Positions 1 to 4,784 of a stretch of 6,988 bases of DNA are shown piece by piece. Both the position numbers and the translations under genes were made by a program. The notes under the pieces are model-generated. The model had not been told where the DNA came from. It saw only the letters and a program-made list of their open reading frames with translations, and searched no databases. Position 1 is the first letter of the stretch; each line of letters starts with the position of its first letter. Source of the stretch: Escherichia coli (lineage in GTDB: Bacteria > Pseudomonadota > Gammaproteobacteria > Enterobacterales > Enterobacteriaceae); assembly GCF_024298765.1 (NCBI RefSeq), contig NZ_CP101214.1; one strand, written 5' to 3'.

Positions 1-378
1 GAACGCAGTAAGACTGGTCAGGGAGTAAGTGAGTATGACAGAGCTGGAAATGCACTTACTGAACGCCTTAGAGCAATTGCAGCAGGACTATACGCAGCGG
101 CTGAAAGACTGGGAGAGCGCCTTCACGGATTTGCAGCATATGTTCGAGCTGACACGACAGGAGAACGGGCAACTGAGGGAACAGTGCGACGACTTGAGTC
201 AGCAGGTGCAGAGATTAGCCGGGCAGGTGGACCACTTGAGTCGGTTATTTATCACGAACAGCAGATAAGGGATGAACAGGAAAGGCAGGCACGCCTGGAA
301 CGGGAGCGTGCGCGGTCCTGGCATGAAGAGCAGGAACGGGAAGCACGGGTATGGCGTGGCCCGTCAATAGGGATGTGA
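1..378 (+). CDS. mbeA: 3' portion of the MbeA/MobA-family relaxase gene (5'-truncated at the window edge; contiguous with 5768-6988 if the replicon is circular)
   Basis: Frame 1 is open from position 1 to TGA at 376-378 (126 codons) with no start codon needed. The window ends at 6988 exactly on an mbeA codon boundary, so 5768..6988 plus 1..378 would form one uninterrupted ORF of about 532 codons. The tail is Arg/Glu-rich (...ERERARSWHEEQEREARVWRGPSIGM). Confidence 0.55.
   Translation, partial: ERSKTGQGVSEYDRAGNALTERLRAIAAGLYAAAERLGERLHGFAAYVRADTTGERATEGTVRRLESAGAEISRAGGPLESVIYHEQQIRDEQERQARLERERARSWHEEQEREARVWRGPSIGM
35..268 (+). CDS. mbeD: MbeD/MobD-family small mobilisation protein (coiled-coil), nested in another frame within the 3' end of mbeA
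   Basis: ATG at 35 (in-frame GTG at 29), 77 aa, MTELEMHLLNALEQLQQDYTQRLKDWESAFTDLQ..., a heptad-rich helical protein. Its position inside the relaxase 3' region matches the ColE1 mob arrangement as I recall it. Family assignment is from memory, not a search. Confidence 0.6.
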   Translation: MTELEMHLLNALEQLQQDYTQRLKDWESAFTDLQHMFELTRQENGQLREQCDDLSQQVQRLAGQVDHLSRLFITNSR

Positions 379-599: not shown

Positions 600-748
600 A
601 TGGCTGAATAGCTATGCATACGGTTAAAATTTATCAGGTGCGATCGCGGCAGCTTTTCGGGTGGTTTGTTGCCATTTTTACCTGTCAGCAGCCGTGATCG
701 CGCTGAACGCATTTCAGCGGTGCGTACAATTAAGGGATTATGGTAAAT
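600..748 (+). other. cer-like Xer site-specific recombination (multimer resolution) site: ArgR-box-like element plus XerC/XerD core
   Basis: Core at 719-748 is GGTGCGTACAA (XerC arm) - TTAAGGGA (8-bp central region) - TTATGGTAAAT (XerD arm), which matches the ColE1 cer crossover site as I recall it. About 100 bp upstream (around 602-620) TGGCTGAATAGCTATGCAT resembles an ArgR box (TGAAT...ATTCA-like), at the spacing expected for the cer accessory region. Confidence 0.8.
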
Positions 749-751
749 CCC

Positions 752-1174
752 TTACTGTCTGCCCTCGTATCCATCGAGATAAACCGCAGAAATGGTGTCT
801 GCCATTAGTTTCATTTTTTTCGGCGAAGGCATATCGCTGTTTGTGTATTTTCTGCCAGCAAAGGCTGTTGTGCTCCGGAGTGAGTGAAAAAATTTTTCTG
901 AGTGGAATTCTTTTACACGTTGCTGTGCCGTTTCTGCTGATACTCCGGCTGCTTTGTCTTTCATCCCCATATCCCGGAACTGCTGAAAGAACGGGAGCAT
1001 CATACGTATGGTGTCTGCTTTCTGGGTGTAGAAGTTAGGATCAAATCCATCATCTGAAGCATAAACATAATGCCGGGTATGTCGTTCCAGGCTGGTCTTT
1101 GGTGTGCATCCTGTAAGAGCTATTGTTGCTGTTATCAGAGGTATCAGAAGCAGCCTGGCAGCGGCAGATTTCAT
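752..1174 (-). CDS. Small lipoprotein of unknown function (about 140 aa; possibly an entry-exclusion-type lipoprotein)
   Basis: ORF on the minus strand. AAGGAG lies 6 nt upstream of the second ATG (1174); the first ATG (1180) abuts the SD. N-terminus MKSAAARLLLIPLITATIALTGC has a basic n-region, a hydrophobic core and an L-T-G-C lipobox (signal peptidase II type). Thr at +2 suggests outer-membrane sorting. Confidence 0.65.
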   Translation of the reverse strand: MKSAAARLLLIPLITATIALTGCTPKTSLERHTRHYVYASDDGFDPNFYTQKADTIRMMLPFFQQFRDMGMKDKAAGVSAETAQQRVKEFHSEKFFHSLRSTTAFAGRKYTNSDMPSPKKMKLMADTISAVYLDGYEGRQ

Positions 1175-1295
1175 AAACATCTCCTTGCGTTTTTAATCTT
1201 GATACTCAGGGAGTTATATCTCCGAAGAGTATCTCTTATCATACGTCGGTTTACTCCCAATGTGATTTGATGGTCAATGAGTCAGGAATAATCCC

Positions 1296-1574
1296 GTGAA
1301 AAAATGTGTGCCAGTCCTGCTTTTTAGTGTTCTTTCTGCTTCGGTTGCCAGTCATGCGGACAGCAATGTTTTTCAACAAAAGGCCGAGAAGACAAAAAAC
1401 GGCATTGTTGCGGATGTTAATGCCAGACAGAAAATGTTCAGTAACAGACTGAAGATACAACTTCAGATCGATGAGTTGAGAGCAGAGCTGGCTGGCACCA
1501 GAGATGCCCAAAAAAGAGAGGATTTGCGTAAAAAACTGGAGTCTCTGGAGCGGCAAAAGAAATCCTTACGCTGA
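1296..1574 (+). CDS. Small Sec-secreted, highly charged coiled-coil protein of unknown function (92 aa precursor)
   Basis: GTG start at 1296 with AGGA 8 nt upstream. N-terminus MKKCVPVLLFSVLSASVASHA-DS is a typical signal peptide (KK n-region, hydrophobic core, S-H-A cleavage motif). Mature part is Lys/Glu/Arg/Gln-rich and predicted helical. TGA at 1572-1574. Confidence 0.5.
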   Translation: MKKCVPVLLFSVLSASVASHADSNVFQQKAEKTKNGIVADVNARQKMFSNRLKIQLQIDELRAELAGTRDAQKREDLRKKLESLERQKKSLR

Positions 1575-1856
1575 TGGGGGCGTATTTTCCCCGGTTTCTT
1601 CCATAACCTTTTTACCGTTCAGATATTTACGGGCGAGGCGAATGCGTCTTGCCTGGTATACCGCCGAGTAAGCCTGGGTGGGATTCACACCATTACTGAT
1701 TTCACTGACCACATGACGCTGATCAGCCAGTGTCAGCGTGTAAACCTGTTTCTGGATGAGGTCACGGGCTTTGTCATGCTCATATCCGGCAGCAACAAGG
1801 GTGTCGAGAAGTCGTTTGTCTGTTTTGTTCAGTTTATGGCGGGGTGATTTGCTCAC
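1566..1856 (-). CDS. Small basic protein with a putative helix-turn-helix (candidate DNA-binding regulator), unknown function
   Basis: Minus-strand ORF. Best start is GTG at 1856 with GGAG 6 nt upstream (the track's longer ORF starts at an in-frame TTG at 1883). 96 aa. The segment HVVSEISNGVNPTQAYSAVYQARRIRLARKY looks like helix-turn-helix. Converges on the 1296-1574 gene with a 9-bp overlap. Confidence 0.5.
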   Translation of the reverse strand: MSKSPRHKLNKTDKRLLDTLVAAGYEHDKARDLIQKQVYTLTLADQRHVVSEISNGVNPTQAYSAVYQARRIRLARKYLNGKKVMEETGENTPPSA

Positions 1857-2095: not shown

Positions 2096-3742
2096 ATGGC
2101 TAAAGAACTAAGTGGATATGGACCAACTGCTGGTGAGTCTATGGGGGGAACAGGGGCGAATCTGAATCAGCAAGGTGGAAATAATAATAGTAATAGTGGG
2201 GTTCACTGGGGTGGTGGCTCTGGGCATGGTAATAATGGTGGTCAGGGAAATTCAAATTCATCTGGTTCTACATCAACTGTGATGAAAACCGGTGAGTCAT
2301 ATCTGACTCCGTGGGGTGATGTTGTCATTAATAATGATGGCCTTCCGGTGATGAATGGTATTGTTATGACAGAAGAGAATTCAACTCTGGTTGATAATCC
2401 ATTTGGAGGGGTCTCCAGAGTTCTTAATTCTTTAATTAGTGATATGCCATCACTTTTTGCAGAAAGCTCAGGAAATAACAACAATAACACTGCTTCAGTT
2501 AATACTGCACCAACGAATGCTCAGGTCAGTGATATGGATAAGAGTTCGAAGGTGGTGGGTAATGTAATTAATGAAAAACAAAAGCAGAAGAATAAAATTG
2601 CTACACAGATTAGTGAAAAACAGAAGAAAATCGAGGAGATGAAAAAAGTATTCAAGCATCATTCTTATCATGGTATCACTGATCTTGAGAGGGATGTTGA
2701 TGAGTTGCAAAAAAAATCAAATCAGCTTGATGCAGATATTAGCAAACTTAATTCTTATAAAAATACATTGCAAAGTAAAATTGGTGATGTGAATAAACAG
2801 AAGGAAGCTGAAGAAAAGGTTCGTGAAAATGCAGAGGTCGCTGAACATGAAACTCTTAATGAAGAGAAACAGGCGGTGGCGGAAGCAGAGAAGCGTTTAG
2901 CTGAGGCGAAAGCTGAACTGGCGAAGGCTGAAAGTGATGTACAGAGTAAGCAAGCTACTGTTTCCAGAGTTGCAGGAGAGCTTGAAAACGCTCAGAAGAG
3001 TGTTGACGTGAAGGTCACCGGATTTCCGGGATGGCGTGACGTTCAGAAAAAACTACAGCGTCAGCTTGAAGCTAAGCAGGCTGAGTACTCCGCAGTTGAA
3101 AATGAACTTAAGAATGCTGTTAGTTTCAGGGATGGTAAGGCCGCTGAGGTTAAAGAGGCAGAGCAGAAATTAAAAGAAGCTCAGGATGCTCTTGAAAAGA
3201 GCCAGATAAAAGATGCTGTTGATACTATGGTTGGATTTTATCAATATATAACCGAACAATATGGAGAAAAATACGCAAAAATTGCTCAGGATTTAGCGGA
3301 AAAGTCTAAAGGAAAGAAAATTCAAGGTGTTGATGAAGCTCTGGCAGCATTTGAAAAGTATAAGAATGTACTGGATAAGAAATTCAGTAAGGTTGATCGG
3401 GATGCTATTTTTAATGCGTTAGAGTCTGTTAATTATGATGAGTTATCTAAGAATTTAACGAAGATATCAAAGTCGCTTAAAATCACCAGTCGAGTATCTT
3501 TTCTATATGATGTTGGTTCTGATTTTAAAAATGCAATAGAAACTGGTAACTGGCGACCTTTGTTTGTCACGCTGGAGAAAAGTGCGGTCGATGTAGGTGT
3601 GGCAAAAATTGTGGCATTAATGTTTAGTTTTATTGTTGGTGTGCCTCTTGGTTTCTGGGGGATTGCAATTGTCACAGGTATTGTTTCTTCTTACATAGGG
3701 GATGATGAGTTGAGCAAACTTAATGAGTTGTTAGGGATTTAA
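2096..3742 (+). CDS. cka: Pore-forming colicin, most likely colicin K (548 aa)
   Basis: 548-aa ORF with a Gly/Asn/Ser-rich N-terminal domain (typical of Tol-dependent colicin translocation domains), a long charged coiled-coil central region, and a C-terminal domain with a hydrophobic helical hairpin ([35 protein letters not shown]) typical of pore-forming colicins. Length and N-terminus [15 protein letters not shown]... match my recollection of colicin K. SOS promoter upstream, immunity and lysis genes downstream. Confidence 0.85.
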
Positions 3743-4029
3743 TTTCTCTTTAGAGTGTAATATATGAAACTTGGCAATCCTACTGGGATTGCCATTAATA
3801 AATAAAACAATGCAGATAACTTGCATAAGTACCAGGGTTCTTTTTTTAACTTTGTATTTTCTTTGATATATCTAGATATGGTTAATTTAGAGTATGGATA
3901 TAGCAATACATGTATTGATGATATAAATATAAATAACAAAGGAGTGTTATCATTCTCGTTAAATATTAAAATAAGAATCCATGGTATAAGTGATTCAGGT
4001 AAATTATGTAGGTAGTATTTTAAATGCAT
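3739..4029 (-). CDS. cki: Colicin immunity protein (integral membrane, 96 aa), convergent with the colicin gene
   Basis: Minus-strand ORF immediately downstream of and opposite to the colicin gene, the arrangement typical of pore-forming colicin immunity genes. Very hydrophobic protein with several predicted TM segments ([35 protein letters not shown]). Its stop codon overlaps the colicin stop at TTAA 3739-3742. Confidence 0.85.
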
Positions 4030-4058: not shown

Positions 4059-4190
4059 ATGAAAATAATAATTTTTCTAATTACAATATTATTCTTGTCA
4101 GGATGTCAAGCAAACTATATTCGTGATGTACAAGGAGGAACCGTTGCACCATCTTCGTCTTCTGAACTGACGGGGATCGCGGTTCAGTAG
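4059..4190 (+). CDS. ckl: Colicin lysis (bacteriocin release) lipoprotein, 43 aa
   Basis: ATG at 4059, TAG at 4188-4190; not in the ORF track because it is short. [43 protein letters not shown] has a signal peptide with an L-S-G-C lipobox and the conserved mature region of colicin lysis proteins. Last gene of the colicin operon. Confidence 0.85.
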
Positions 4191-4249: not shown

Positions 4250-4352
4250 ACGAAAAAACCGCCTGGGGAGGCGGTTTAGTCGAAGGTTAAGTCAGTTGGG
4301 GACTGCTTAACCGGGTAACTGGCTTTAGTGGAGCACAGATACCAAATGCTGT
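4250..4352 (-). ncRNA. RNA I antisense copy-number control RNA (about 100 nt)
   Basis: Minus-strand promoter: -35 TTGAAG (complement of 4383-4388), 18-bp spacer, -10 TACACT (complement of 4359-4364), start near 4352 (ACAGCAUUUGG...). 3' end has a hairpin, AACCGCCT / AGGCGGTT at 4257-4276, followed on the minus strand by a U-run. Fully complementary to the 5' end of RNA II. Confidence 0.8.
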
Positions 4353-4358
4353 CCTTCC

Positions 4359-4388
4359 AGTGTAGCCGCTATAAGGCTTCAACTTCAA
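4359..4388 (-). promoter_or_regulatory. RNA I promoter
   Basis: TTGAAG -35 and TACACT -10 on the minus strand with an 18-bp spacer, arranged as in pBR322 RNA I. Confidence 0.7.
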
Positions 4389-4784
4389 GAGTTCTGCGTA
4401 TCTAAATCCACTATCCAGTTACCAATGGCTGCTGCCAGTGGCGTTAAGTCGTGTCTTACCGGGTTGGACTCAAGACGATAGTTACCGGATAAGGCGCAGC
4501 GGTCGGGCTGAACGGGGGGTTCGTGCACACAGCCCAGCTTGGAGCGAACGACCTACACCGAACTGAGATACCAACAGCGTGAGCTATGAGAAAGCGCCAC
4601 GCTTCCCAAAGGGAGAAAGGCGGACAGGTATCCGGTAAGCGGCAGGGTCGGAACAGGAGAGCGCACGAGGGAGCCACCAGGGGGAAACGCCTGGTATCTT
4701 TAAGTCCTGTCGGGTTTCGCCACCTCTGACTTGAGCGTCGGTTTTTGTGATGCTCGTCAGGGGGGCGGAGCCTATGGAAAAACG

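Follow-up and report, generated by a model that had tools for sequence, protein, structure and literature searches.

What does the small gene that lies between cer and the colicin operon of a colicin K plasmid encode, and does its product keep other plasmids out of the cell, as the name of its family implies? The window, i.e., the whole stretch of DNA analyzed here (6988 bases), is a complete small plasmid of the ColE1 family that encodes colicin K, and many public records of exactly 6988 bp, such as that of E. coli pB1172_6988, match it at 99.8–99.9%. Judging by its sequence, the gene at positions 752–1174 of the minus strand is exc2, the ortholog of ColE1 Exc2, an already known and routinely annotated gene that has been named since 1985. 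The account given below, in which the gene is exc2, its product is a predicted outer membrane lipoprotein and a proposal for its function is held at a lower level, is one in which we have good confidence as a whole. New here are the extent of the family across the Enterobacterales, including its chromosomal members, a confident structural model, and a position relative to the colicin operon that recurs in all 12 small plasmids opened.

The Source Plasmid and Its Genes

The colicin K gene occupies positions 2096–3742 of the window and is accompanied by its immunity gene (3739–4029, minus strand) and by a colicin lysis gene (4059–4190) that scores 85.5 bits to the Pfam profile PF02402 (Lysis_col). 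Immediately 5′ of the colicin K gene, at 2021–2051 of the plus strand, stand two LexA-type boxes, CTGTATATAAAACCAG and an overlapping second box ending in TATATACAG, which fit SOS control of the colicin, as expected. The plasmid also carries rop and the mbe mobilization genes, among which mbeD (35–268, plus strand) is intact, as judged by NF033829 (121 bits against a cutoff of 60), PF04899 and the PGAP annotation. RNAI lies at 4250–4350, and near it, within the ColE1-type origin region, RefSeq places a 47-aa “replication initiation protein” (4385–4528, minus strand). ColE1 replicons need no plasmid Rep protein, and for this reason the call looks spurious.

ColE1 carries exc1 5′ of exc2, whereas the ColK-type plasmid has in its place two unrelated small ORFs at 1296–1574 (plus strand) and 1566–1856 (minus strand), which are convergent and overlap by 9 nt. 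Their products are 92 and 96 aa long, respectively. The former begins with a signal peptide that looks cleavable (MKKCVPVLLFSVLSASVASHA/D) and continues into a charged, coiled-coil-like tail, and the latter matches the phage family phrog_36305 (E = 9e-39). Direct comparison revealed no homology of either product to the 145-aa Exc1 of ColE1, and the presence of exc1 in the window was rejected on these grounds. The trio made of exc2 and these two ORFs was seen again in another ColK-type plasmid.

The exc2 Gene and Its Predicted Lipoprotein

Counting an alternative ATG at 1180, the ORF listing gives exc2 an open reading frame that spans 752–1180 on the minus strand. The start is likely the ATG at 1174, from which the gene encodes 140 aa plus a stop codon (423 nt), because a Shine-Dalgarno sequence (AAGGAG, 1181–1186, minus strand) is found 6 nt 5′ of this codon, because PGAP uses the same start and because the ColE1-type homolog aligns from the same methionine; the AAGGAG motif directly abuts the ATG at 1180. 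Residues 1–22 (MKSAAARLLLIPLITATIALTG; 1109–1174, minus strand), read from the sequence and with a script, form a signal peptide with a basic n-region (K2, R7), a hydrophobic core and the lipobox L-T-G-C (residues 20–23; 1106–1117, minus strand), so that MKSAAARLLLIPLITATIALTG/C is followed by TPK. This arrangement corresponds to the lipobox pattern [LVI][ASTVI][GAS]C after a basic n-region and a hydrophobic h-region, and Cys23 (codon 1106–1108) is the predicted lipidated first residue of mature Exc2. The original prediction of a lipoprotein signal is thus upheld, at the level of prediction, by the 22-aa signal peptide and the LTG/C site of the 140-aa product. By script, the mature domain has a basic pI of 9.2 and is hydrophilic.

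Sorting beyond the inner membrane is also predicted. In E. coli, Asp at position +2 is the inner membrane retention signal (PMC8923210). Exc2 has Thr at +2 and Pro at +3, and the retention signal is absent from it; Asp is likewise absent from position +2 of every lipobox-bearing representative of the family. The earlier suggestion that the +2 Thr points to the outer membrane gains support from both observations.

Upstream of the gene, a weak candidate sigma-70 promoter (ATCACA, 17 nt, TATGAT; 9 of 12 consensus matches) was found at 1238–1266 of the minus strand. It is kept as only a candidate, since the two sigma-70-like sites observed in the exc2 region do not exceed the 3.3 expected by shuffling. 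A scan that allowed one mismatch found no LexA-type box near exc2, the only ones being those at the colicin K promoter, and exc2 is for this reason not obviously co-regulated with the colicin.

Family Membership, Selection and Distribution

The product of exc2 matches the NCBIfam model NF033828 (“Exc2 family lipoprotein”) with 179.3 bits (E = 4.5e-53, cutoff 35) over 126 of the 131 model positions. It aligns by BLASTP over its full length, with one 1-residue gap, to the Exc2 encoded by a colicin E1 plasmid of 6647 bp (67% identity, i.e., 94 of 140 residues; E = 3e-73), with which it shares its length, its lipobox and its motifs (HTRHYVYASDDGFDPNF and, at the C-terminus, ADTISAVYLDGYEGRQ); the central third is the part that diverges most from the ColE1-type protein. 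The place of the gene is also that of ColE1 exc2, which abuts the cer core upstream of the colicin operon. The homology to ColE1 exc products that had been suspected is confirmed by these sequence and profile comparisons. The alternative that the gene might encode a novel envelope protein does not hold: RefSeq/PGAP places an identical protein, WP_001255518.1, at these very coordinates, and dozens of identical 6988-bp colicin K plasmids carry it. No match to Exc2 or to 50 members of its family was found in Pfam, and none to Exc2 in the PADLOC defense-system models, in PHROG or in the PDB sequence profiles.

Compared with six other alleles, exc2 has dN/dS ratios of 0.05–0.32 (Nei-Gojobori, where dS is unsaturated), which indicates a functional protein-coding gene under purifying selection. 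Searched exhaustively with HMMER, 1.84 billion representatives gave a family of 102 clusters at 50% clustering, most of whose representatives are full-length lipoproteins of 128–142 aa with 26–52% identity, and all named hosts belong to the Enterobacterales. In an alignment of 50 members the lipobox Cys is invariant. Three motifs recur in the family: S-x-E-R-H-A-(R/K)-H just past the lipidation site, P-F-F-x-Q-F-Y-x-x-G-x-x-D-R-A-x-G in a long central helix, with an invariant Gly70, and Y-L-D-G-Y-x-G at the C-terminus. By tblastn, exc2 occurs in 929 plasmid records, and 508 of 5,426 complete E. coli genomes (about 9%) contain it, with 129 copies being chromosomal.

In E. coli, chromosomal copies are surrounded by IS fragments and lie about 7 kb away from mchB and mchI of microcin H47; exc2 is frameshifted in the chromosome of Nissle 1917 (9005–9417 of locus L010) and intact in that of strain 8178 (9005–9424 of locus L011). 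Members that score above the family cutoff are also found on contigs larger than 470 kb, one of them from Enterobacter cloacae and another located between cmoB and cutC, beside a dlt-like operon. A DUF2767 gene that recurs beside chromosomal homologs is FumD; it was considered as a clue to an envelope role and dropped, FumD being uninformative on that point. A distant homolog on the K. pneumoniae IncF plasmid NZ_CP057315.1 (5281–6357 of locus L003) is annotated as a 230-aa protein with a TTG start; if read from an internal Met instead, it becomes a lipoprotein of normal form, about 137 aa long (…LLITG/CSANQTSVERNASH). Its 5′ neighbor encodes a 111-aa lipoprotein that comprises little beyond a TonB C-terminal domain, its 3′ neighbor is an orphan cloacin-immunity gene, and the three genes could be a bacteriocin-defense islet.

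Predicted Structure of Exc2

AlphaFold2 run with the 50-sequence alignment returned a model with a mean pLDDT of 91.7 and a pTM of 0.80. In this model, residues 3–20 form the signal helix, which stands apart from the folded domain, and the latter consists of helices at residues 28–39, 52–75, 80–90, 93–98, and 118–137 and a beta hairpin at 102–111. Foldseek found nothing below E = 1 in the PDB. Against viral models it gave marginal matches to small phage proteins, some of them named “lipoprotein” (best E = 0.014, TM of about 0.53). A relationship to phage proteins was dropped, tblastn of Exc2 and of the family consensus against 50,697 phage records being empty at E = 10 and PHROG giving no match. 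Since no catalytic fold is recognizable in the model, a binding role would be the most economical reading.

The cer Site Beside exc2

Across the block at about 612–751, the window differs hardly at all from the cer region that a ColE1-type plasmid carries. The block comprises an accessory region at 612–718 (plus strand; near-identical by pairwise DNA alignment, its left boundary being approximate) and a core at 719–748 (plus strand), in which the XerC arm, the 8-nt central region and the XerD arm read GGTGCGTACAA-TTAAGGGA-TTATGGTAAAT, an exact match to GGTGCGTACAATTAAGGGATTATGGTAAAT, which recurs beside exc2 in two ColE1-type plasmids. The stop codon of exc2 (752–754) is 3 nt from this core, as close as the original prediction of adjacency to cer would have it, and the spacing is 3–4 nt here and in those two plasmids. 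Transcription of exc2 runs into the XerD side.

This tight packing raises the question of whether the ORF is kept for a reason that resides in the DNA, i.e., transcription into cer or a contribution to the flank of the site, with the protein being irrelevant. Besides the proximity of the stop codon and the direction of transcription toward cer, such a reading would be favored by the synonymous divergence between ColK and ColE1 types, which reaches a pS of 0.62 midway through the gene and a lower 0.38 over the last 20 codons; this difference hints at either a recombination boundary or a constraint at the DNA level. However, dN/dS is well under 1 across the whole gene, homologs that lack cer keep the lipobox and the protein motifs at 26–50% identity, and the fold is predicted with confidence, all of which makes a purely DNA-level explanation highly improbable.

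Does Exc2 Exclude Plasmids?

According to the statements in which later papers cite the original work (PMC3832669, PMC2831885, PMC11493245), exc1 and exc2 were only predicted as exclusion genes, by Chan in 1985, and Yamada in 1995 assigned the exclusion of ColE1 to mbeD, not to exc1 or exc2. The ColE1 phenotype credited to mbeD is mild, and even the existence of true exclusion has been doubted (PMC11493245). Exc1 has been suggested to be a DNA-binding protein of replication modules rather than an exclusion protein (PMC3832669). A sub-threshold match of the ColE1-type Exc1 (145 aa; 901–1338 of locus L002) to a “plasmid replication DNA-binding protein” family (E = 8e-10, 39 bits, cutoff 85) fits that suggestion. 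MbeD of ColE1 is encoded by the same plasmid as exc2 and also bears the “exclusion” label, but its sequence shows no relationship to that of Exc2: MbeD is a coiled-coil protein of 77 aa that, unlike Exc2, has neither signal peptide nor lipobox. Were the window plasmid to have any exclusion phenotype, its own mbeD would be the expected source.

TraT of F is an outer membrane surface-exclusion lipoprotein. Like Exc2, TraT and TrbK, the inner membrane entry-exclusion protein of RP4, are small plasmid-encoded envelope lipoproteins; their exclusion phenotypes are demonstrated, whereas Exc2 is reportedly without one. The two sorting signals also differ, TrbK having at +2 the Asp that leads to inner membrane retention (PMC8923210) and Exc2 having Thr. 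Searches of Pfam, of NCBIfam, with 50 family members and of the PDB with Foldseek gave no profile or fold link between Exc2 and TraT, TrbK or other exclusion families. The single match to TrbK, by one chromosomal homolog, reached 16 bits (cutoff 23) and covered only residues 6–27, within the signal peptide.

The distribution of the gene bears on the same question. MbeD is present in 2,994 plasmid records, 99% of which are mobilizable, and thus outnumbers Exc2 on plasmids more than threefold; 21% of the Exc2 records are typed conjugative or non-mobilizable, and two thirds or more of the MbeD plasmids lack Exc2. Conversely, exc2 accompanies a MOBC relaxase where MbeD is missing, and it is also found on plasmids typed non-mobilizable and on a relaxase-less colicin N plasmid (PMC8148099). 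The gene is not inherited with any one mobilization module: some copies accompany MbeABCD, others MOBC, and still others reside on plasmids that lack a relaxase or on chromosomes. Its presence on relaxase-less plasmids and chromosomes decouples exc2 from mobilization.

Exc2 might nonetheless be a genuine outer membrane exclusion factor that, in a recipient already carrying the plasmid, hinders mating-pair formation or the DNA entry of related mobilizable plasmids, either alone like TraT or together with MbeD. It would be an outer membrane type of lipoprotein, as the F surface-exclusion protein TraT is (PMC11493245), its gene lies about 480 bp from mbeD across cer, and the region was originally given this very function. 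Moreover, since exclusion acts in recipients, the presence of exc2 on non-mobilizable replicons is compatible with it. Against these points stand the credit given to mbeD in the citing papers, the missing similarity to known exclusion proteins, the many MbeD plasmids devoid of Exc2, and homologs at chromosomal sites such as that between cmoB and cutC. We therefore consider this explanation unlikely: the entry-exclusion function offered by the original prediction is doubtful, and the function implied by the name is probably wrong.

Bacteriocin Context and a Proposed Role

A small, hand-picked sample of 12 distinct small exc2 plasmids was opened, comprising two ColK types (the window and L025), four ColE1 types (L002, L018, L022, and L028), two cloacin-like tRNase types (L017 and L024), a colicin R plasmid (L021), a colicin U/Y-like plasmid (L020), a Hafnia plasmid encoding a pore-former (L023), and a plasmid with an unnamed bacteriocin-like operon that includes a lysis gene (L019). 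Every one of the 12 carries a colicin-type operon or its lysis gene, and in every one exc2 flanks the promoter end of the bacteriocin operon, from which 0–2 small ORFs separate it, with its transcription directed away from that operon. Among these plasmids the mobilization module varies or is absent, the adjacency of exc2 and the colicin being kept over at least seven bacteriocin types and at least three kinds of mobilization module. The one colicin-less MbeD plasmid opened lacks exc2. A further record that was sampled, NZ_CP069547.1, proved uninformative, its linear assembly being incomplete. In the E. coli plasmid with the unnamed operon (NZ_CP132980.1, 9686 bp), which is typed non-mobilizable, a seven-gene unit that includes exc2 and an exc1-like gene occurs twice head to tail, as either a plasmid dimer or an assembly artefact.

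The genus profile of the Exc2 matches is closer to that of the colicin lysis protein than to that of MbeD. Colicin lysis or bacteriocin release lipoproteins (BRP; PF02402) resemble Exc2 in being small, in residing on colicin plasmids and in their distribution among genera; they differ in being unrelated in sequence, about 45 aa long and encoded within the colicin operon, which is SOS-induced, exc2 being a gene of its own. Exc2 gave no match to the Lysis_col profile PF02402 in Pfam.

Following the rules that apply to lipoproteins, Sec would export the exc2 precursor, Cys23 would receive the lipid and signal peptidase II would remove the signal peptide. Since position +2 holds Thr rather than Asp, mature Exc2 would be predicted to travel by the Lol system to the inner leaflet of the outer membrane, and about 118 aa, folded into a basic and mainly helical domain, would then be left in the periplasm. 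This domain may bind an envelope partner in the plasmid-carrying cell, and the role of such binding could be tied to the lifestyle of a bacteriocin producer, e.g., tolerance of the damage caused by the lysis protein or of incoming bacteriocins. A role of this kind is likelier than a block to DNA entry because exc2 stays beside colicin-type operons whatever the mobilization genes. We tentatively propose that Exc2 acts as a periplasmic binding protein anchored to the outer membrane, and that it serves the lifestyle of colicin producers rather than the exclusion of incoming DNA. A fuller version of this proposal, to be taken as speculation, would make Exc2 a conserved accessory of the bacteriocin module rather than an exclusion protein, tethered to the outer membrane and with a fold unseen in solved structures, that was recruited from a chromosomal lipoprotein family of the Enterobacterales and protects or conditions the envelope of the producer, for instance by limiting the damage caused by the lysis protein and phospholipase A or by blocking the import of foreign bacteriocins.

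The link to bacteriocins may only reflect descent from one common backbone that joined cer, exc2 and a colicin. No bacteriocin is found near the distant chromosomal members of the family, nor near its solo copies, which neighbor iha on a plasmid of Shiga toxin-producing E. coli (STEC) and metabolic genes on one from Cronobacter. Exc2 could, with a similarly tentative standing, be a general-purpose envelope lipoprotein of the Enterobacterales with no role in transfer or in bacteriocin biology, the plasmid copies being captured chromosomal genes that ride along as passengers of the backbone or bring a small benefit to the host. Such an origin would agree with the solo copies, with chromosomal members that score 94 and 115 bits, above the NF033828 cutoff, in housekeeping neighborhoods, and with the frequent truncation or frameshifting of exc2, e.g., in Nissle 1917 and in 13.8-kb Klebsiella plasmids. 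The purifying selection on the plasmid alleles speaks against this general-purpose reading, as do the constancy of the place beside colicin operons and the absence of exc2 from the single colicin-less MbeD plasmid opened.

Implications for Colicin Plasmids

The product name of exc2 still implies entry exclusion, and surveys that list the gene among conjugation or exclusion functions repeat an unsupported label. What the classic colicin plasmids carry is a well-conserved, selectively maintained lipoprotein predicted to reside in the cell envelope, and its position on the bacteriocin side of these plasmids offers a cheap hypothesis for its role in pColK and ColE1.
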